A DNA stretch of 64,000 nt from Bacteroidota bacterium. GTDB lineage: Bacteria; Bacteroidota; Bacteroidia; Palsa-948. The stretch is from the NCBI GenBank assembly GCA_016213435.1, contig JACRAL010000098.1, positions 141-64,140 of the forward strand, read 5' to 3'. Position numbers and translations under genes: made by a program. Position 1 is the first letter of the stretch, and the number at the start of each line of letters is the position of its first letter. The notes beneath the pieces were generated by a model that did no database searches, was not told the origin of the DNA, and worked only from the letters and a program-made list of their open reading frames with translations. Shown here piece by piece: positions 31,423 through 41,480 of the stretch.

Positions 31423-31497
31423 GGTGGTTGTAGCTCAGTTGGTTAGAGCACTAGATTGTGGTTCTAGGGGTCGCGGGTTCAAGTCCCGTCATCCACC
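31423..31497 (+). tRNA. tRNA-His (anticodon GTG) with genomically encoded G-1; no encoded CCA
   Basis: Cloverleaf read by hand: G-1, acceptor GTGGTTG/CATCCAC, D-arm GCTCAGTTGGTTAGAGC, anticodon stem CTAGA/TCTAG with loop TTGTGGT, T-arm GCGGGTTCAAGTCCCGT, discriminator C. Confidence 0.8.
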
Positions 31498-31694
31498 CTT
31501 CTTCAAATTACATTGCGACTCTGACGCACTAGTACTCCTGCGTCAGTAGTCAGAGTGCAGGTCAAAGCGTCAGCATTCAAGTCCCGTCATCCACCCTTCT
31601 TCAAATTACATTGCGGCTCTGACGCACTAGTACTCCTGCGTCAGTAGTCAGAGTGCAGGTCAAAGCGTCAGCATTCAAGTCCCGTCATCCACCC
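31478..31694 (+). repeat. 98-bp tandem repeat (2.2 copies) seeded in the tRNA-His 3' end; the 21-mer TTCAAGTCCCGTCATCCACCC occurs three times
   Basis: Copies at about 31478-31498, 31576-31596 and 31674-31694. The intervening 77-bp units differ by a single nt and contain the hairpin CTGACGCA-N10-TGCGTCAG. Confidence 0.8.
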
Positions 31695-31727
31695 AAATCC
31701 TGACTTATTGTAAGTCAGGATTTTTTA
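31695..31727 (+). terminator. rho-independent terminator AATCCTGACTTA-TTG-TAAGTCAGGATT followed by T6
   Basis: 12-bp perfect stem, 3-nt loop, T-run. Overlaps the stop codon of the convergent HK gene. Confidence 0.7.
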
Positions 31728-33104
31728 TATCGGCATTTCAATTTTATAGCTTGTTCCTTTGTTAATCACACTGTCTATTGTTAATGTGCCATTATAGGAT
31801 TCAACTTGTGATCGGATATATTTAATACCTAATCCTTTAGACTGATCCATGTTGCTGATTTTAAAACCAACTCCGTTATCTTCCAGCAGCAACATTACTT
31901 TATTGTCGTAGCTATTCAAGTTGATACTGATTTCGGTTGCTTTGCCATGCACAATGGAATTATCTATAAATTCTTGAATAATTCTGTAAATTAGAATTTG
32001 TAACGTTTTATCTAGATTGGGAAAAGAATCATTTATTGTGATTTTAAATTTCAGCCCATTACTTAGCATCCTGTTATTGCAAAGATCATGCATTGCGGCT
32101 ATTAAGCCAAACTCTATCAATGTTCTTGGCATCAGGTCGTAGCAGATCTGACGTAATTCAGTAAATACATTATCCATTGCATTTGTAGATTTGATAACTG
32201 TATTCCTGATCTTTTCTTTTGGAAAACTTCTGGTATTGCCATGTGTGATTGTTTGCAGATAAAACTTGATCCCTGCCAATTGTTGAGCCAAGCTGTCGTG
32301 TAAGGCACTGGCAAATTTATCCCTGTCAGTTTCCTGCTTATCTATAAGAGCACGAAGTAAACTGTTGTTGGCTTCCTTCTGTTTAGTAATGTCTTTTATC
32401 AAACCAAAATATCCTGACTCCTCGCTGTTTCCGTTGATAGGATTTACAGAAATTAATGCATCAATCCGCTTATTCTTCTTATCCTTTAACTTTATGTCCA
32501 TATTCTGAATGGCTCCATCTTTCTTTAATTTCTTTATTAATTCCTCCACATTAGTATCTACCAACAATTCATGGAAATCAATAGTGTAAAGCTGATTTCT
32601 CGAATATTTCAATATGACAGATGCTGCATTATTAAAATCTATCAGAAGTCCGTTTTTGTTTACTAGAAAAATAACATCTTTTGTTTCCTCAAAAATATTT
32701 TTATACTGGGTGAGTAATTTTTTGTTTCGTTCCTTAAAAGCATAAACTTCATACGCATTCTCAATGATAATTTTCAATTCATTTGCATTAAAAGGTTTTA
32801 AGATATAGCGGTAAACCTCCCCCAGATTAATCGCTTCTATTACTGTTTCTATATCTGAATAGGCGGTAAGAAGGATTCTGACAGGATCGGGATATTCCGG
32901 AATAATTGACTCTAGAAATTCTATGCCCGTGGTGTTGGGCATACGCTGATCGGTAATAATGATATTGATTTCTTTTTCCTTTAATATCTTTCTTCCTTGT
33001 TCTGCCGATTCTGCAGTATAAACTGCAAAATGTTCTCTGAAATTAGCTTTGAATGATGTTAAATTATTTACTTCATCATCTATGTAGAGTATTTGGATTT
33101 TCAT
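31725..33104 (-). CDS. hybrid signalling protein: N-terminal receiver (REC) - PAS - NarL-type histidine kinase (HisKA_3 + HATPase_c)
   Basis: REC with ITDQRMPNTTG (phospho-Asp), PAS-like middle, H-box ASALHDSLAQQLAG, ATPase box LEDNGVGF. Confidence 0.7.
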   Translation of the reverse strand: MKIQILYIDDEVNNLTSFKANFREHFAVYTAESAEQGRKILKEKEINIIITDQRMPNTTGIEFLESIIPEYPDPVRILLTAYSDIETVIEAINLGEVYRYILKPFNANELKIIIENAYEVYAFKERNKKLLTQYKNIFEETKDVIFLVNKNGLLIDFNNAASVILKYSRNQLYTIDFHELLVDTNVEELIKKLKKDGAIQNMDIKLKDKKNKRIDALISVNPINGNSEESGYFGLIKDITKQKEANNSLLRALIDKQETDRDKFASALHDSLAQQLAGIKFYLQTITHGNTRSFPKEKIRNTVIKSTNAMDNVFTELRQICYDLMPRTLIEFGLIAAMHDLCNNRMLSNGLKFKITINDSFPNLDKTLQILIYRIIQEFIDNSIVHGKATEISINLNSYDNKVMLLLEDNGVGFKISNMDQSKGLGIKYIRSQVESYNGTLTIDSVINKGTSYKIEMPI

Positions 33105-33321: not shown

Positions 33322-35472
33322 TTATCCTTTTTTCTTGAAGTCTTTCTGTGTTATTGGTAAGGTTAAAATAAATGTAGTTCCCTTTCCTTCTTCTGATTCC
33401 ACCTGAATGTCTCCGTTGTGGCTCTTCATTATATTATATACGATGGATAATCCTAAGCCTGTTCCTTCTCCCACTTGTTTGGTGGTAAAAAACGGTTCAA
33501 AGATTTTATCTTTATTCTTTCCGGATATTCCAATGCCATTATCTTCGATGCTGATGATTACATGATTGTTATTGGTTCTTGTTTTTATAGTAATAACACC
33601 TTTTTTGCTTGAATCTTTTCTATCTATTATTGCATGAATGGCATTGTTTATCACGTTCATGAATACCTGATTCAATTTTCCGGGATAGCACTCTGTTTGA
33701 GGGAGTTGTTTGTCAAAGTCTTTTATGACATCTATTTCTGCTTTCTTAAGGTTGCTGTTCAGTAATATGAGGGTTGATTCTATGCCATCATGAATATTAA
33801 TCTGTTTTAAATCATTTTCATCTAAACGGGCAAACGTTTGAAGCCCTTTTACTATTTCAGCGGTTCGGTAGGCCCCCTCATCAATGCCCTTGAGTAAAAG
33901 ATCTATTTCTGTTATCAAATAACTTACATCCAGCTTTTCTTTTAAATCGTTTATCTCTTTTATTTTATCGTGTAGATCATGATCGCTTTTTATTTCGCTG
34001 TACTTATCCAATACACGCAGAATATTTCCAACATCTTTTTTTAAAGGAGCGACATTGGAAATTACAAAATTGATGGGATTATTTATTTCGTGTGCAATGC
34101 CGGCAGTGAGCTGACCCAAGGAAGCCATTTTCTCGGTATTGACAAGCTGGGCTTGTGTTTCTTTCAGGTCTTTATTGGATGCTTCTAATTGGGCTGTTCT
34201 TGCTTTTACATTGGCTTCTAAATAAATATTTTGTTCGGTAATAATTTTTTCGTTTTCTTTTAATGCGTTCAGTGCAATAATTCGCGATTCTTCTTTTTCT
34301 TCTTTAAGGATGTTAATTCTGTCGGCCAAAGCAAAGGAGAGTAACACGGTTTCGATGGCAGATCCTACAGGCATTGTATAAACAGTAAAATCATTGTAAG
34401 GAAGAATCCCCGCACTCTTCATGGCATGAATAAATACGCCCACTAAAAAACAAGACCATGCAATGGCAAAAAATTTTGCAGGTCTATATCCCATTCTTGC
34501 TATGCGAAAACTAATAAATAACATGTATAGCGACAAGGGGCTTACGATACCTAAAATTAATTGCCAGCTTATTTGATAGAATCCGGATACTACCAAAAGG
34601 GCAGCGATAGCATATAAACCATACGATAAAAGAAATATCTTATCCAGCTTTGGAACATATTGAGTTGTATGCAGAAATATGCGAAGAAATTGAACAGAGG
34701 CAACTCCAACGAAAATGCTTAAAAGCATAATACTTTGAACTTCAAATTGCGGACTGTCGGGCCAAAGGTATTTGAATGTATAACCTTGAAAAGCTGCTTG
34801 GGTAAGCATTACAGATACTATATATATTACATAGTACAAGTAACTTTTATCGCGTATGGAAAAATAAATGAAGAGATTGTAGCATATCATTATCAGCATT
34901 ATGCCGCAATATATTCCAAACATGAAATTGAGAGTAGTGCCTGATGAAAATGCAAGCACCGGAGTTGTGATTTTGAAGGGTAATTCAATCTGATCAAAAC
35001 TCTTTATTTTAATAAAGTATGTTCTTTCATTTTCTTTATTTATATGAAGATCAAATAAGTAAGCGGTGTGTTTGTATTTTCGTTCGAAGAATTTTTTATT
35101 CTGCCCTATGACCACCGAAGAATAAGTATCGTCTTCGTTTAAAGTAAACAGTTCCGCTTCATCAATTAAAGGCGCTTCTAATGCGAGTACCAGATTACTA
35201 TCGGTTGAATTATTTTTTATCTGAATTTTTACCCATATAGTTGCTGGTGTAAACTCTAAATTAGGTACCTCTTTTAAGCTTTTTTCAAAATTTGAATTTC
35301 TTTTCACTTCAGCTATTCCCATTTTACCGGATGTGTCTTTTAATATCCAGATATATTTTCCGATGTATTGATTTTGTTCTTTATCAGAAAAAACAAGCTG
35401 TGCATTGCAAATGGCTGATAAGTAAAATATAAACGTAAGAAGCAAGCCGAAGGAAAGTTTTATTTTATTCAT
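33322..35472 (-). CDS. 7TMR-DISM family sensor histidine kinase
   Basis: Signal peptide plus extracellular domain, seven predicted TM helices, coiled coil, HisKA H-box AGIAHEINNPINFV, HATPase_c G-boxes. Confidence 0.75.
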   Translation of the reverse strand: MNKIKLSFGLLLTFIFYLSAICNAQLVFSDKEQNQYIGKYIWILKDTSGKMGIAEVKRNSNFEKSLKEVPNLEFTPATIWVKIQIKNNSTDSNLVLALEAPLIDEAELFTLNEDDTYSSVVIGQNKKFFERKYKHTAYLFDLHINKENERTYFIKIKSFDQIELPFKITTPVLAFSSGTTLNFMFGIYCGIMLIMICYNLFIYFSIRDKSYLYYVIYIVSVMLTQAAFQGYTFKYLWPDSPQFEVQSIMLLSIFVGVASVQFLRIFLHTTQYVPKLDKIFLLSYGLYAIAALLVVSGFYQISWQLILGIVSPLSLYMLFISFRIARMGYRPAKFFAIAWSCFLVGVFIHAMKSAGILPYNDFTVYTMPVGSAIETVLLSFALADRINILKEEKEESRIIALNALKENEKIITEQNIYLEANVKARTAQLEASNKDLKETQAQLVNTEKMASLGQLTAGIAHEINNPINFVISNVAPLKKDVGNILRVLDKYSEIKSDHDLHDKIKEINDLKEKLDVSYLITEIDLLLKGIDEGAYRTAEIVKGLQTFARLDENDLKQINIHDGIESTLILLNSNLKKAEIDVIKDFDKQLPQTECYPGKLNQVFMNVINNAIHAIIDRKDSSKKGVITIKTRTNNNHVIISIEDNGIGISGKNKDKIFEPFFTTKQVGEGTGLGLSIVYNIMKSHNGDIQVESEEGKGTTFILTLPITQKDFKKKG

Positions 35473-35473
35473 G

Positions 35474-36211
35474 TTATATTTTATCCTTATTTGTTACATA
35501 TAATTCAGGTAATGTTATCTCAGTTACATTATTTACAATGAGGTTGTAGTTTACCATAAATTCTCCTTTAGGTCCCGTTTCTAACCGCTGCCGGATTGGA
35601 TTATCTCTCAAAGAAAGCATTCTTTCTTTATCATAAGGAGCGGCAGTATTTAATGCTATTCCATTCAGGATACCAACAGCACGGGCGATATTATTTTCAT
35701 TGGGATAAAGAAATGTTCCATTATTACCTAAAAATGTATTAACGACAAATCCTACATTTTGGAACATTTCTAAAGTATATTCACCACAAATACCAGTAAG
35801 AGTTTGAAATTTTAATTGATTAATGGCTGATATAGCAGCACGCACCAAAACTACGCTGATTCCTTTTCCTTTTACTTTATTTGAATTCCAAAGCCCGCAT
35901 AATTCTCCCGCACCTCCATCAATTGCATATTTCTTAACTACCTCATAAATTCTGGCATCCATTTTTCCAATGGCGCCTTCTATAGGAAGAGGAAATATTC
36001 CATTGGCTACTTGTATTCGAATTCCACCTACTAATTCATTTGATTCATCGGTTGCAATAAAACAGTAAACATTGGGATTATTTATCCAGTGGTTATTGTT
36101 AGAGGTAATATTCTCAATGCCATAATCTTTTAGTACTTGTACATGACCTTTTATATACTCTTTGCAAGTAGCAGATTCATCAATTGCCCGATATGCTCGT
36201 ATTAGGATCAT
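35474..36211 (-). CDS. GNAT-family N-acetyltransferase candidate
   Basis: 245 aa. VVLVRAAISAI...KGKGIS resembles the acetyl-CoA-binding motif A region. Start abuts the stop of the upstream kinase. Confidence 0.4.
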   Translation of the reverse strand: MILIRAYRAIDESATCKEYIKGHVQVLKDYGIENITSNNNHWINNPNVYCFIATDESNELVGGIRIQVANGIFPLPIEGAIGKMDARIYEVVKKYAIDGGAGELCGLWNSNKVKGKGISVVLVRAAISAINQLKFQTLTGICGEYTLEMFQNVGFVVNTFLGNNGTFLYPNENNIARAVGILNGIALNTAAPYDKERMLSLRDNPIRQRLETGPKGEFMVNYNLIVNNVTEITLPELYVTNKDKI

Positions 36212-36254
36212 ATTATATCGCTATTTGGATATATTGGCTTTTTGGTGAAAAATA

Positions 36255-36410
36255 TGAGCTTTCCGGCAGAGGATATGAGCTTTTCGGTGGACGATTTGAC
36301 ATTTCCTGTAGAGGATTTGAGCTTTCCGGTGGACGATTTGACATTTCCTGTAGAGGATTTGAGCTTTCCGGTATAGGATTTGAGCTTTCCGGTAGACGAT
36401 TTGACATTTA
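36255..36410. repeat. 21-bp tandem repeat, about 7.4 units (GAGCTTTCCGGTGGACGATTT / GACATTTCCTGTAGAGGATTT alternating; 42-bp higher-order period), filling the gap between the ThiF-nitroreductase gene stop and the GNAT gene start
   Basis: Units 2+3 and 4+5 are identical except for one nt. Both strands are open across the array (ORFs 36213-36407 minus and 36184-36441 plus). Confidence 0.8.
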
Positions 36411-38747
36411 TATTATAGAATTTGTGAATTTTAATACTTGATCAAGGGGATATCTTAATGATCTGAATTTCGGGGGATTATCAATTATAAATCGCATTAA
36501 TAGTACTTTTCCTTTTTGAGGATTGATGCCAAATAAATCTTCAAGTTCCTTCAACAAGGTTGTTGCTTCTTTTCGCATGTTATCTGGAAGGGCATCTTTT
36601 TTACCATATACTAAAGTATTAAATATTAAAATTGATAAAGAAGGAGGGTGGGTGGAGATGTTATCATGATTGGCAGCCAGCCATACTCTTTCTAAAGCCC
36701 GACCGCCTTGGTAAAAATTATTGGTTGTGAATGAAGGCACTGTTAACAGCCCGACAGCGGCTGAGCCGCGAATCCACTTGCGTTGAATTTTTCCAAATGC
36801 AGAACCTAATTCCCAATCGGCAAGATGTTTAACAACCGACCAATCTTTGCTTACAAAAAATCCGGCAAATTCTGTTGGAGTTAGATCCATTGTTTCCTGA
36901 AAGCTAATTCCGTTTCTTGTTCTTTCCGCTTCTTCAATAGTCCAACGAGCTTCTCCTCTAAAATCATTATGTCCTCCTTTGCTCAGATACCTGATTCGAT
37001 CCATCTTGGCGGTTATCTCACTTAGTTTAATGAGCTTATCTTCATCATCTATAATAATCATATCTGCTCCGGGAATGGTGCGGGCAATTTCTTGTAGTTT
37101 ATTTAACCTGTTTTTTTCAATTGTTTTTCTTTGTACAATTGTTCTGTTTGATACTCTGGAGTTGATTGTTTTAGATAAGTGGTCGCACACATGGGGTTCC
37201 AGTTTATCTTTTATTTCAGCATGTGCTGTATCAAAAAAACGAAAGGTGGTTATTAATTTTGTATCGTCATTAATTTCCACTGTTTGAGCTGCTACTTCCA
37301 GTCCGAGCTCATGGGCTTTTAATACCAAATTTTCGGCTGCTGCTCCAAGCCCCGTAATCATGGTTGTTCTTTGGCAATCCAATAAATCGGGACGGAACAC
37401 ATCATCAAAAAAGAAGTATAGATTTTTGTTGTGATACATCCATTTCCATGTCTGGCTGTTTGCTCCGGAGGGAGCTTTAGAGGCAGCTTCGGCTAATTGT
37501 TTAATTGTGTTTTCCGGCAGATCAATTTGTAAGTTCCAGGTTTCTTGATGGGCTGAATGGATTATATCTAACATTTCTTTATCACTCAAAGATGGTTTGA
37601 TATTCAAAGGCTGCTCGATATATTCTTTTGTGTTTTTATCTTTTATTACCTCTTCCAGATCCACAAAATATCTTCCCGAATCATGCAGTTGATTCAGCAA
37701 AACTCTTCGGCACACATCCGCACATATTCCCCCGCCCAAAACCACACCCGATGCCAATTGAGGCCAGGTTGTTATTGTTTGTTCAATTTCCAGCATAGAA
37801 GCCCTTAGCCGGGTGGATGAAGTTTCTACTCCTAACATGGGTAACAGATAAGGAACTTTTTCTTCATTGGTCTTGGCCTGTTTTACTAAACTCAAATCCA
37901 AGTGATCAATCAATCCGTGCAAGATTGGTAATTCAGGGTTTAGATCATAGCGCTCTATATCGGTTGTTCCTTTATCGCTTGAATTCATAACAACGGGAAT
38001 ACGCAGTGACTTTGCTTTTTGACGTGTAAATATCTTTGTATACAAACCATCGCATACCTCAATGCATACATCTAACTTGCCATCTTTTAGAAAAAAGTCA
38101 TCTGCATTTGCTTCGGTTAGTCCATCAGAATACCAGGTAACTTTTAAATAAGGATCAATTTCCGAGATTTCTCTGGCTACCACAATCGTTTTTTTAATTC
38201 CAAAGTTTTGAACTCCGGTTTGTATGCGGTTTAGGTTAGAGAGTTCAATAACATCAAAATCTGCAATCCGGAGCTCACTGCATATTCGTTCCATGGCTAT
38301 GGTTAAAGCAATGGCTTTTCCTACAGACAATCCTATTACTCCAATTTTTTTTGTTGCAAGTATTTTTTCCTCCTCAGGAGTTATCTTATAATGATTCCTA
38401 TTTGTTCTTACTTCCACAAATTCTTTTTCATCCAATATATGTATCAACTTTTTTGACCAAGGGTAGTAAACCCAAACACCGTATTCTTCACTCGGTATAG
38501 AGCCAATATGTTTTTTAGCTGCTTCGGTTAAAGCGCTTTTAGTAAATACTATTTTAGGATTTTGAGATTTTACGAGTTCTTCCAATTGCCCCTGAAGCTC
38601 ATCAAATACATTTATATCGGGGGTTTCTTTAAGTAATTGCGTCAGCTTGTTGTTGTCAGAGGCGTTATTTAAGCGAAAAAACAATGGGTAAGCAACTGTT
38701 TCGCTCGATTTAGTTTGTTTGCATAAAATGGCTAATTTATCCTTCAT
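36408..38747 (-). CDS. E1-like (ThiF/MoeB-fold) - nitroreductase-like (SagB-type dehydrogenase fold) fusion protein, Rv1355c/MoeY-like architecture
   Basis: Rossmann KKIGVIGLSVGKAIALTIAMERICSELRIADFDVIELSNLNRIQ (E1-like nucleotide-binding). C-terminal ASKAPSGANSQTWKW is the nitroreductase-family FMN-binding signature. Confidence 0.65.
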   Translation of the reverse strand: MKDKLAILCKQTKSSETVAYPLFFRLNNASDNNKLTQLLKETPDINVFDELQGQLEELVKSQNPKIVFTKSALTEAAKKHIGSIPSEEYGVWVYYPWSKKLIHILDEKEFVEVRTNRNHYKITPEEEKILATKKIGVIGLSVGKAIALTIAMERICSELRIADFDVIELSNLNRIQTGVQNFGIKKTIVVAREISEIDPYLKVTWYSDGLTEANADDFFLKDGKLDVCIEVCDGLYTKIFTRQKAKSLRIPVVMNSSDKGTTDIERYDLNPELPILHGLIDHLDLSLVKQAKTNEEKVPYLLPMLGVETSSTRLRASMLEIEQTITTWPQLASGVVLGGGICADVCRRVLLNQLHDSGRYFVDLEEVIKDKNTKEYIEQPLNIKPSLSDKEMLDIIHSAHQETWNLQIDLPENTIKQLAEAASKAPSGANSQTWKWMYHNKNLYFFFDDVFRPDLLDCQRTTMITGLGAAAENLVLKAHELGLEVAAQTVEINDDTKLITTFRFFDTAHAEIKDKLEPHVCDHLSKTINSRVSNRTIVQRKTIEKNRLNKLQEIARTIPGADMIIIDDEDKLIKLSEITAKMDRIRYLSKGGHNDFRGEARWTIEEAERTRNGISFQETMDLTPTEFAGFFVSKDWSVVKHLADWELGSAFGKIQRKWIRGSAAVGLLTVPSFTTNNFYQGGRALERVWLAANHDNISTHPPSLSILIFNTLVYGKKDALPDNMRKEATTLLKELEDLFGINPQKGKVLLMRFIIDNPPKFRSLRYPLDQVLKFTNSII

Positions 38748-38892
38748 GGTTAATTTTGGGGTGTATGAAATCTTCTAAAAATGTTATTGTTTATATCAAA
38801 TAAACGCATAAATTTATGCATTATAATCTATTGTCTTTAAATTTATTAAGAATAATAATAGATAAAGATAAAAATCAATCCTATTAGAAATC

Positions 38893-39378
38893 ATGAAAAA
38901 TAATAAAATCACTGTTCTTTATGTAGATGACGAGGCCAATAATTTATTGTCATTCAAAGCAAACTTCAGGGAATTGTATGAAGTTTATACAGCTGAATCT
39001 GCCGAAGAAGGCAAGCGCATATTAAAAGAGAAAAAAATACACGTTATCATTACGGATCAGCGCATGCCTAACACCACAGGCATAGAATTTTTAGAATCAA
39101 TTATCAAAGAATATCCGGAGCCAATCAGAATACTCTTTACAGGATATACAGATATAGGAGCTGTAATTGAAGCCATTAACAAAGGACAAGTATATCGTTA
39201 CATTACGAAACCTTCCAACATGGAAGAGTTAAAAGGTATTATTGAGAATGCGTATGAAGTGTATTCCCTCCGTGAAGAAAATAAGGAGTTAATGAAAAGT
39301 TTATTGCAAGTGAATCAGCAACTGGAGTTTATGTTGCGTCAGAGATTGATTGCCATGGATACCAATGCTGAAAATTAA
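38893..39378 (+). CDS. stand-alone response regulator receiver (REC) protein, paralogous to the REC of ORF 31725-33104
   Basis: About 70% identity to the N-terminal 120 aa of the 459-aa hybrid kinase (ITDQRMPNTTGIEFLESII, YRYI(T/L)KP, IENAYEVY). Confidence 0.75.
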   Translation: MKNNKITVLYVDDEANNLLSFKANFRELYEVYTAESAEEGKRILKEKKIHVIITDQRMPNTTGIEFLESIIKEYPEPIRILFTGYTDIGAVIEAINKGQVYRYITKPSNMEELKGIIENAYEVYSLREENKELMKSLLQVNQQLEFMLRQRLIAMDTNAEN

Positions 39379-39550: not shown

Positions 39551-39820
39551 TTACTTCTCTATTTCCAGTTCCAATCCACATTTGCGGCAGTTGCCGGCTT
39601 TGGATTCTCTCACTTCGGGGCAGCCGCCACAAGGACAAATATACACCAGAGATGCTTCTTCATGATGTGTGGAATCATGTGCCATTGCGGATACCCCTTT
39701 GGAAGTATCAACCGGCATTGTATCCTCTTGTTTTTTTTCTCCTGAACTTCCGCATCCGGAAAAGGTGAGTGACAATGCAACGGCTCCTGTTAATACAGGG
39801 AATAAAAAGTGTTTTTTCAT
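39551..39820 (-). CDS. small lipoprotein with C-terminal CPCGGCPEV...CRKCG metal-binding-like motif
   Basis: Lipobox FSGC. C-terminus YICPCGGCPEVRESKAGNCRKCGLEL parallels the TCPMHPEV...KCGM domains of ORF 2722-3162. Confidence 0.45.
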   Translation of the reverse strand: MKKHFLFPVLTGAVALSLTFSGCGSSGEKKQEDTMPVDTSKGVSAMAHDSTHHEEASLVYICPCGGCPEVRESKAGNCRKCGLELEIEK

Positions 39821-40291: not shown

Positions 40292-40915
40292 TCAATGCAA
40301 AGGTGGAGTTACAGCAGGAGGAGGCGATGCGATCTCGCTCTTAAATGTTTTAGAATACTCTTCCCACTGAATGGTTTTATACACATTTTCTCCAAAATAT
40401 TTTACGATGGGTTCCAGTTGAGCCGGTTGAAGATATCCCGGAACCTGCGTAATAAGGTTAAAGTCTTCATCCAGATAAACCGTGGTGGGATAAGACAATT
40501 TATTGCCAAGAAGTGATTGTGCCAACTGGTGAGTGGATCGGGGCACATTCGGACTGGGATTAACGAAAGTATTGTTGTTGAACCTCACGGTGTCTTTCAT
40601 TTCTGCATCCAATTTAACGGCATAGAATTTTTCGTTTATATAGCTTGCTATTACGGGGTTGGTAAAGGTGTTTTTATCCATCACCTTGCACCATCCGCAC
40701 CAGCTGGTGTATACATCAATAAAAACTTTCTTCTTTTCTTTTTTGCCTAATTCCACTGCTTCCTGAAAAGTATGCCAATGAATGCCCTCGCCTGATTCTT
40801 GCGCAGCAGCAGGAGTAGAGTTGCTTTGGCTTTCGTTCTTCTGCGAAAAGAAAACAAATCCACTCAGAAGCAAACCCGAAGCAAGAAGTGCGGTTATGAT
40901 TTTAGTTGTTTTCAT
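40292..40915 (-). CDS. secreted thioredoxin-fold protein (WCGWC active site)
   Basis: Signal peptide and YTSWCGWCKVMD CxxC motif. Confidence 0.65.
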   Translation of the reverse strand: MKTTKIITALLASGLLLSGFVFFSQKNESQSNSTPAAAQESGEGIHWHTFQEAVELGKKEKKKVFIDVYTSWCGWCKVMDKNTFTNPVIASYINEKFYAVKLDAEMKDTVRFNNNTFVNPSPNVPRSTHQLAQSLLGNKLSYPTTVYLDEDFNLITQVPGYLQPAQLEPIVKYFGENVYKTIQWEEYSKTFKSEIASPPPAVTPPLH

Positions 40916-41127
40916 GTTAAGTGTAAAGTTAAGGATTTTTATTTTGAGTGAAACGAAAATTCATTCCTTACTTCCCGTTCCACAAACACTCTTCCTCATG
41001 TTGTTTGATAAGCACGCCCTGTTTTGCGGAACGGTGTAATAATTCAGGATAACCTGCATAGATTTTTGGATAGTATCTGACACAGATACGTGAACCTGCT
41101 CTTTAAAAGTTAATTCATCGGATGGTT

Positions 41128-41480
41128 CTACTTATTCCTCTGCTTTTTGAATCAACAAAGCGGATGATTTTATTCATTCCTCTGCGTTTTGAATTGCTTC
41201 CTCCGATCATGCTATTCATTCCTCCGCTTTTTGAATCAACAAAGCGGATGATTGTATTCATTCCTCCACCTTTTGAATTATTTCATCCGATAATGCTATT
41301 CATTCCTCGGATTTTTGAATTAACAAAGCGGATGATCCTATTCATTCCTCTTCTTTTTGAATTGCTTCCTCCGCTTTTTGAATAAACAAAGCGGATGATT
41401 GTATTCATTCCTCCACCTTTTGAATTATTTCATCCAATCATGCTATTCATTCATCCACTTTTTGAATCATATCCTCCTAT
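41128..41480. repeat. degenerate tandem array, about 42-bp subunits (TATTCATTCCTC-N5-TTTTGAAT-N17) alternating two variants, giving an 84-bp period with about 4 copies
   Basis: TATTCATTCCTC occurs about 9 times and CTTTTTGAATCAACAAAGCGGATGATT four times. The ORF 41122-41385 is a repeat artefact. Confidence 0.7.

Follow-up and report, generated by a model that had tools for sequence, protein, structure and literature searches.

In 2025 the Mycobacterium tuberculosis protein Rv1355c was identified as TrzS, in which a ThiF-like ATP-dependent cyclase is joined to a flavin mononucleotide (FMN) oxidase (PMC12856293). Its substrate is the N-acyl tryptophan that TrzA (Rv1356c) produces, and its products are N-acyl tryptazolones, formed by an ATP-requiring cyclisation and an O2-requiring desaturation (PMC12856293). 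This oxazolone pathway has been reported in Pseudomonadota, Actinomycetota and Planctomycetota (PMC12479983). Oxazolones do not survive acid or methanol (PMC12856293). The papers on its biosynthesis leave the physiological role of the lipids unresolved, and signalling is merely suspected (PMC12856293; bioRxiv 10.1101/2020.06.11.147165). The subcluster of FMN-dependent oxidases (FDO) that contains Rv1355c, A4, comprises 14,445 sequences. Here we describe a gene pair of this kind in a Bacteroidota bacterium of the lineage Palsa-948 (metagenome-assembled genome GCA_016213435.1), on 64,000 nucleotides of contig JACRAL010000098.1 (positions 141 to 64,140), hereafter the window. A 779-amino-acid (aa) protein and its 245-aa neighbour probably constitute a Bacteroidota TrzA/TrzS (OxzA/OxzB) pathway whose product is most likely tied to a dedicated phosphorelay, a reading to which we assign a probability of about 0.72. 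The enzyme family is known and large; what is new is the kinase-linked Bacteroidota cassette. The searchable literature, which leaves out most subscription journals, yielded no mention of the oxazolone pathway in Bacteroidota or of its linkage to kinases. The features of the locus are as follows.

36408-38747, minus strand: 779-aa TrzS/OxzB-like oxazolone synthetase of the Rv1355c family (Pfam, NCBIfam)
35474-36211, minus strand: 245-aa N-acyl amino acid synthase-like protein of GNAT fold, predicted TrzA/OxzA counterpart (predicted fold, hhalign)
33322-35472, minus strand: 716-aa 7TMR-DISM sensor histidine kinase, candidate receptor (Pfam)
31725-33104, minus strand: 459-aa protein with receiver (REC), PAS, HisKA_3 and HATPase domains, a receiver-controlled second kinase (Pfam)
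38893-39378, plus strand, divergent from the 779-aa gene: 161-aa stand-alone receiver (Pfam Response_reg)
36213-36407, minus strand: 64-aa repeat open reading frame (ORF), called as an ORF and judged non-coding
36213-36424, no strand: 21-bp tandem repeat of about 7-8 copies between the 779-aa and 245-aa genes (Tandem Repeats Finder, TRF)

A first-pass annotation, made from the letters of the window without database searches, had described an operon-like block of sensor kinase, GNAT gene, repeat ORF and ThiF-nitroreductase fusion, bracketed by receiver domains, and all of these features are present where it had placed them. An independent Logan assembly contig (L001) reproduces the 779-aa gene, the same junction and the first repeats.

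The 779-aa protein, which NCBI names 'Rv1355c family protein', scored 722.3 bits against the equivalog model NF005901 ('Rv1355c family', NCBIfam; cutoff 476) over profile positions 3-720 of 722, and it aligned colinearly with M. tuberculosis Rv1355c at 31% identity over 680 aa (BLASTP, E 3e-97). Pfam placed a ThiF domain at residues 122-267 (E 1e-14) and a Nitroreductase match at 410-437 (E 4e-7), and the two motifs quoted in the first-pass annotation are found in these domains, IGVIGLSVGKAIALT at residues 134-148 and APSGANSQTWKW at 425-436. Its call of an E1/ThiF-nitroreductase fusion of Rv1355c/MoeY type is therefore borne out by both sets of models, while the accompanying description of Rv1355c proteins as of unknown function is outdated, Rv1355c being TrzS and acting on an N-acyl amino acid (PMC12856293). 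Judged from its sequence, the 779-aa protein is a full-length Rv1355c-family member with the following approximate regions, a linker lying between ThiF and FDO.

Residues 1-86 (38490-38747): N-terminal region
Residues 87-365 (37653-38489): ThiF-like cyclase
Residues 405-779 (36411-37535): FMN-dependent oxidase

When 55 Bacteroidota and two actinobacterial homologues were aligned, the nucleotide-binding motifs G136xGLSVG143, D163, N171/N173/R174, K186 and D233 proved invariant or nearly so, as did the oxidase motifs A425-P426..N430-Q432-W434, R531/N534/R535 and E599/W602. The nitroreductase domain, for which the first-pass annotation had allowed that FMN-binding residues might be lacking, has thus kept its oxidase residues. 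Residues tested in M. smegmatis TrzS were placed by the sequence context of the published mutagenic primers. D217 in the ThiF domain (VEECD; ATP) corresponds to D233 here and is kept in all 57 sequences, and R540 of the FDO (DRIRYL) corresponds to R586, kept in 55 of the 57.

The AlphaFold2 model of the 779-aa protein (mean predicted local distance difference test, pLDDT, 82.7) found its best Protein Data Bank (PDB) match in the Acg homologue 2YMV, which is also the closest structure published for the TrzS oxidase domain (PMC12856293), and the oxidase domain is Acg/TyzC-like. The further structural matches were the ThiF-like enzymes AclA, MccB, ThiF and PaaA; a literature search for AclA (9egb, a match from Tenacibaculum) gave nothing relevant. 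When PDB sequences were searched with a profile, the best ThiF-family match of the ThiF domain was TcdA, itself an oxazolone-forming enzyme; a single-sequence phmmer search of PDB with the 779-aa protein gave no match. Separately, a Streptomyces sp. NBC_01471 plasmid (L089, 4914-6712) encodes a ThiF-only protein sharing 40% identity with the N-terminal half of the 779-aa enzyme, with a MerR regulator gene before it and, overlapping by 4 nt, a gene for a 211-aa 'GNAT family protein' after it. This pair was dropped as evidence because its GNAT protein has no detectable similarity to the 245-aa synthase.

The 245-aa protein (locus tag HY840_07970) belongs to a family that is labelled 'hypothetical protein' almost everywhere, has no curated model and gave no NCBIfam match. 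Its AlphaFold2 model (pLDDT 91.7, predicted template modelling score 0.89) retrieved structural matches of GNAT type, and the GNAT call of the first-pass annotation, sub-threshold by sequence, is in this way confirmed by predicted structure. The model has the three-layer alpha/beta/alpha fold of the acyl-homoserine lactone (AHL) synthase/FeeM type. The top Foldseek matches were BjaI, a CoA-dependent AHL synthase (5w8a, E 9e-8), and the N-acyl amino acid synthase FeeM (2g0b), with a TM-score of 0.77 when normalised by the FeeM chain and of 0.60 when normalised by the query. BjaI and FeeM are also the structures published as closest to TyzA (PMC10404671). While single-sequence BLASTP of the 245-aa protein against TrzA gave no significant match, an hhalign comparison of the 245-aa family profile with the profile of the TrzA/Rv1356c family reached a probability of 95.6% (E 1e-8, 166 columns), with the aligned motifs VGG(I/V)R.Q, GE..(L/K)..W.S and YP. 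The TrzA family set was seeded from the gene beside an Rv1355c-family gene on a Rhodococcus plasmid and includes Rv1356c (P0199).

A shared pathway is supported by natural fusions of ThiF and synthase domains. These are a 1006-aa ThiF-FDO-synthase protein (P0276), residues 769-993 of which are 51% identical to the 245-aa protein, and a 632-aa ThiF-synthase protein (P0461); each comes from one cluster and may be an artefact of sequencing across the junction, which normally measures 1-4 nt. From the fold, the remote homology, the adjacency of the genes and the fusions, we infer that the 245-aa protein is an N-acylating synthase and the counterpart of TrzA/OxzA. At 50% identity, the synthase family falls into 617 clusters. 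Within it, synthase-like domains also occur fused to a TIR domain (570 aa, P0454), fused to leucine-rich repeats (662 aa, P0448) or as a tandem double (479 aa, P0365), and the TIR and leucine-rich repeat fusions hint at a use of the domain outside the oxazolone pathway.

The two enzyme genes belong to a conserved cassette of five genes. GTDB species genomes were scanned with the 245-aa synthase; 401 genomes matched and the best 80 loci were examined. ORFs in these relatives were called mechanically and matched to the window proteins, and duplicate loci were removed before counting. The counts apply to the nearer members of the family (synthase identities of 47-73%), most of the loci are contigs of metagenome-assembled genomes (MAGs), and the denominators are those loci that have room for the gene. 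A ThiF gene lies directly upstream of the synthase gene in 68 of 69 loci and is fused to an FDO in 62/69. The 7TMR-DISM kinase gene follows the synthase gene directly in every case (73/73), a REC-kinase gene is found within 4.5 kb in 55 of 62, and a stand-alone receiver is present in 60/62 and divergent in 57/62. All five genes occur together in 52 of 62 loci. Median gaps of -4 nt between synthase and kinase and of +9 nt between kinase and REC-kinase indicate co-transcription and translational coupling. In contrast to this core, the flanking genes vary, any one locus sharing a flanking homologue with a median of 6 of the 80 others. The links that the first-pass annotation had drawn between the 779-aa protein and its GNAT-like neighbour, through adjacency and fusions, and between the block and the co-oriented 7TM sensor kinase are therefore upheld, and its concern that homologues might lack a conserved neighbourhood does not apply.

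The hosts are nearly all Bacteroidota. They include many cultured Pedobacter, Nemorincola, Flavipsychrobacter and other Chitinophagaceae, as well as Vicingaceae, Brumimicrobium and other Flavobacteriales, Cytophagales and Sporocytophaga. Among the cultured carriers of the cassette are Pedobacter steynii DSM 19110, P. duraquae DSM 19034, P. panaciterrae LMG 23400 and Nemorincola caseinilytica JCM 32105. Pedobacter cassettes have two stand-alone receiver genes upstream and not one (L036, L048, L050, L058, L062, L065, L070, L073, L075, L077, L079, L080, L083, L085 and L086). In a Chitinophagaceae MAG (L033, 2358-5465), genes for a methyltransferase, a GT2 glycosyltransferase and an NAD-dependent epimerase stand between the ThiF-FDO and synthase genes and may be tailoring genes.

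On the signalling side, the 716-aa protein has the DISMED2 domain, the 7TM domain and the kinase core of a 7TMR-DISM sensor kinase (Pfam: 7TMR-DISMED2 PF07696, 96.8 bits; 7TMR-DISM_7TM PF07695, 178.6 bits; HATPase_c, 98 bits), the H-box of its HisKA region being weak. Pfam found REC, PAS, HisKA_3 and HATPase domains in the 459-aa protein, and its REC domain and the 161-aa receiver are paralogues with 63% identity over 157 aa, as had been noticed from the letters alone. Considering the translational coupling to the 7TMR-DISM kinase and the five-gene cassette together, the product of the enzyme pair is most likely tied to a dedicated phosphorelay. Control of the biosynthesis by a two-component system, as proposed in the first-pass annotation, is plausible.

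The window differs from its relatives at the junction of the two enzyme genes, where the 21-bp repeat occupies a gap of 196 nt. TRF reported an array at 36255-36404 (period 21, 7.1 copies, 79% matches), and its 42- and 63-bp rows run on to 36424, taking in the last 17 nt of the 779-aa gene. The minus-strand frame reads MSNRLPESSNPIPESSNP... and is open throughout, as are 3 of the 6 frames across the array. As a period that is a multiple of 3 leaves several frames free of stops, the openness of the 64-aa ORF is no evidence of coding. Between the repeat copies, differences fall at codon positions 1/2/3 in the numbers 44/61/29, and single-base codon differences comprise 8 synonymous and 57 nonsynonymous ones, a pattern without purifying selection. 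Across 81 related loci, the median gap from the ThiF(-FDO) stop to the synthase start is about 3 nt, and in the closest relatives (synthases 71-73% identical) TAA is followed by ATG 2-4 nt on. None of the related loci inspected (about 80) has the ORF; in them the two genes mostly abut, and nine other loci with gaps of 157-337 nt have AT-rich, unrelated sequence there that contains neither a repeat nor a shared ORF or peptide. The window holds two other intergenic tandem repeats, one of which likewise opens an ORF. It lies at 41119-41426, has a unit of 42/84 bp (about 3-6 copies, 71-87% matches) and gives rise to an 87-aa ORF on the plus strand (41122-41385). We judge the 64-aa ORF to be non-coding, a by-product of a lineage-specific repeat expansion that neither takes part in the pathway nor encodes a precursor peptide. 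Of the claim made for this repeat in the first-pass annotation, the array filling the gap and its open Ser/Pro-rich frame stand, and a coding function does not.

The proposed pathway would run in three steps. First, as the fold, the adjacency of the genes, the fusions and the remote homology suggest, the 245-aa enzyme would acylate the amino group of an amino acid from acyl-CoA or acyl carrier protein, with an N-acyl amino acid as the product. The ThiF-like domain of the 779-aa protein would then adenylate the carboxylate with ATP, the amide oxygen would close the 5(4H)-oxazolone ring, and the fused FMN oxidase would desaturate C-alpha to C-beta with O2 to yield an unsaturated N-acyl oxazolone; this second step is modelled on orthology to the experimentally characterised TrzS and on the conserved catalytic residues. 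Finally, the lipid or its N-acyl amino acid precursor would most likely be tied to the phosphorelay of kinase, REC-kinase and receiver, the simplest wiring being that the kinase senses the product. Only gene context enters into this last step.

Several observations weigh against such a pathway operating at this locus or throughout the family. By sequence, the 245-aa protein reaches 18.4 bits with Pfam Acetyltransf_1 (PF00583; E 0.0027), below the cutoff of 20.7, and its match to TrzA, at 17% identity, is that of a remote homologue only. The gene order is S then A, the opposite of trzAS and oxzAB. The third tested residue of M. smegmatis TrzS, Q651 in the FDO (SVQP), corresponds to H700 here, and the homologues are divided between Q (35) and H (22), a Rhodococcus member likewise having H. 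In 7 of 69 loci the ThiF gene comes without an oxidase. Two loci have duplicated synthases, and one more has two synthases and no ThiF remnant. As the oxidase or ThiF is absent at some loci, the final product is not identical everywhere. Pfam and NCBIfam also detected no DNA-binding or enzymatic output domain in the cassette proteins, so that the target of the relay is not visible and the cassette does not have the usual form of a 'regulator plus target operon'.

The variant loci can be described further. The ThiF-only proteins have 356-379 aa (L005/L018, from Bacteroidetes bacterium UKL13-3, and L014, L016, L020, L031, L042, L047 and L071), and neither an oxidase domain nor an oxidase gene is present within the fetched loci. 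A saturated ring, or some other compound, would be the product at these loci, most of which have a REC-kinase of PAS-HisKA_3 type. Tandem synthase paralogues lie at L057 7270-8687, L049 7231-8681 and L072 2796-4240; at L057, ThiF and FDO are wholly absent (tblastn) and the kinase, REC-kinase and receiver are retained.

What the phosphorelay does with the lipid is the point at which explanations diverge. The conserved operon with a membrane sensor kinase suggests, without proving it, that the lipid is a signal; this is an argument from context. Extending this, the cassette could be a cell-cell or self-sensing system of Bacteroidota in which a lipid autoinducer derived from an N-acyl amino acid, and an oxazolone at those loci that have ThiF-FDO, is perceived by the 7TMR-DISM kinase and relayed by REC-kinase and receiver. 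This is a tentative proposal, somewhat better than one chance in three by our estimate, and its basis is the adjacency of synthase and kinase genes (73/73). Alternatively, the chemistry could be the same and the lipid no self-made signal: the relay would sense an outside cue, such as envelope or antibiotic stress, and regulate an antimicrobial, membrane or stress lipid. In proteobacteria, oxazolone production is induced by sub-inhibitory antibiotics, and the related N-acyl dehydrotyrosines are antimicrobial (bioRxiv 10.1101/2020.06.11.147165; PMC12856293 discussion). Tryptazolones are, moreover, mostly cell-associated (PMC12856293), and the extracytoplasmic 7TMR-DISMED2 domain could bind an unrelated ligand. 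However, the module has no transcription factor and therefore no visible circuit that would regulate its own operon, and no exporter or immunity gene is conserved in it. The synthase and kinase genes also overlap in most loci and are never apart (73/73), which is typical of synthase/receptor pairs. An outside cue is the main rival to the self-made signal, and we regard it as rather unlikely.

Two further explanations concern the chemistry itself and can be rejected. The first-pass annotation had suggested a small system for modifying peptides or cofactors and had pointed to the maturation of thiazole/oxazole-modified peptides (TOMMs). In a system maturing TOMMs or other ribosomally synthesised and post-translationally modified peptides, the E1-like domain would dock or activate a precursor encoded by the repeat ORF and the nitroreductase would oxidise azolines. 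The 64-aa ORF is indeed packed tightly between the genes, and the peptide-acting ThiF-like proteins MccB and PaaA are among the structural matches. Yet that ORF occurs in none of the related loci and shows no coding constraint, other long gaps offer no common peptide in its place, and the conserved module contains neither a YcaO nor a precursor gene (for YcaO, this covers the module and not the rest of the 64-kb window). With an Acg/TyzC-like oxidase and an equivalog-level match to TrzS, the substrate of which is an N-acyl amino acid (PMC12856293), the 779-aa protein points to a small-molecule substrate, and maturation of a peptide is very improbable. A sulfur-carrier adenylyltransferase of MoeB/ThiF type would agree with the ThiF Pfam domain and with legacy annotation, since JGI labels several homologues MoeY or molybdopterin/thiamine biosynthesis adenylyltransferase. 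The MoeB, ThiF and MoeZ models of NCBIfam nevertheless scored far under their cutoffs (for example 32 bits against 633), no ThiS/MoaD-like partner gene is found in the module, and both TyzB ('MoeW') and Rv1355c ('MoeY') have been experimentally reassigned (PMC10404671, PMC12856293), which leaves this function with next to no probability.

Scans for regulatory elements were uninformative. A sigma-70 promoter scan gave 28 sites against 30.1 in shuffled sequence, with a model unsuited to Bacteroidota; a terminator scan gave 6 against 5.7 in shuffled sequence; and the Bacteroidota TAnnTTTG motif had no consistent position between the divergent genes of the loci. In the window, the 145 nt that separate the divergent genes contain a perfect 14-bp palindrome, GCATAAATTTATGC (38806-38819), 72 nt upstream of the 779-aa gene. 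It is not kept in the related loci, a version with 2 mismatches occurring in one only. Just 3' of the REC-PAS-kinase gene lies a 98-bp tandem repeat (31478-31694; 2.2 copies, 99% identical), adjoined at 31695-31723 by a palindrome with a 13-bp stem, AAATCCTGACTTA..TAAGTCAGGATTT, which resembles a bidirectional terminator. Two neighbouring genes on the minus strand lie outside the conserved cassette: one at 39551-39820, for an 89-aa protein with a heavy-metal-binding domain (HMBD), and one at 40292-40915, for a 207-aa thioredoxin-like protein (DsbH/DUF255-type).

The fixed position of the synthase gene beside one membrane sensor kinase across several Bacteroidota orders provides a candidate receptor, and the cultured Pedobacter and Nemorincola carriers make the cassette accessible in culture. 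The assignments also correct the labels 'molybdopterin/thiamine adenylyltransferase' and 'hypothetical protein'. If the lipid were indeed an autoinducer, this would be the first physiological role and the first receptor for oxazolone lipids, and 7TMR-DISM kinases would gain a defined lipid ligand. Oxidase loss, ThiF loss, duplicated synthases and extra tailoring genes would then represent signal diversification.

Among the described systems, TrzA/TrzS of M. tuberculosis, M. smegmatis and R. jostii, which makes N-acyl tryptazolones (PMC12856293), shares the ThiF-FDO architecture, and the 779-aa protein, above the equivalog cutoff and 31% identical to TrzS, keeps the probed D and R. The 245-aa neighbour is likewise predicted to be an N-acyl transferase of FeeM/LuxI fold, although as a remote homologue it is very divergent from TrzA. 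Signalling genes adjoin both systems, enzymes of cyclic di-GMP (c-di-GMP) metabolism in the actinobacterial trzAS loci and a two-component relay here. We verified the Rv1352-Rv1357c region of M. tuberculosis (L090), which encodes an EAL protein, Rv1356c, the 715-aa ThiF-nitroreductase protein, a GAF-GGDEF-EAL protein, a TetR regulator and Rv1352, and the Rhodococcus plasmid has a GGDEF neighbour; the c-di-GMP enzymes were remarked upon by the TrzS authors too (PMC12856293). Linkage of the pathway to signalling genes thus recurs across phyla. The present locus differs in belonging to Bacteroidota and not Actinomycetota, in its reversed gene order and in being embedded in a five-gene kinase/receiver cassette.

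OxzA/OxzB of Pseudoalteromonas rubra (de Rond et al., bioRxiv 10.1101/2020.06.11.147165) resembles the locus in combining a ThiF-nitroreductase di-domain enzyme with an N-acyltransferase in a compact operon. OxzB, however, belongs to a different ThiF/FDO subcluster, A8 as opposed to A4 for Rv1355c (PMC10404671), and reports of the system are confined to alpha-, beta- and gammaproteobacteria and include no kinase linkage. TyzACB of M. tuberculosis and the NasY-ThiF-nitroreductase clusters of Stieleria, Thalassotalea and Massilia follow the same sequence of N-acylation, ATP-dependent cyclisation and flavin desaturation (PMC10404671, PMC12479983). In these clusters the ThiF protein is not fused to the oxidase, and the compounds made come from tyrosine; no two-component genes have been described with them. 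TcdA/CsdL, the tRNA t6A dehydratase, is the closest solved ThiF-family sequence and also forms an oxazolone ring by ATP-dependent dehydration, but its substrate is tRNA and it has no oxidase domain, and the 779-aa protein falls far below the TcdA cutoff of NCBIfam (27.6 against 304).

In LuxM/LuxN, CqsA/CqsS, LqsA/LqsS and RpfF/RpfC, the gene for a synthase of a small lipid stands beside the gene for a polytopic membrane histidine kinase that feeds a multi-step phosphorelay. Their enzyme chemistry and receptor families are unrelated to those of the 7TMR-DISM cassette, but the invariant, overlapping pair of synthase and kinase genes described here appears similar in design to these autoinducer systems, by analogy and not by membership.

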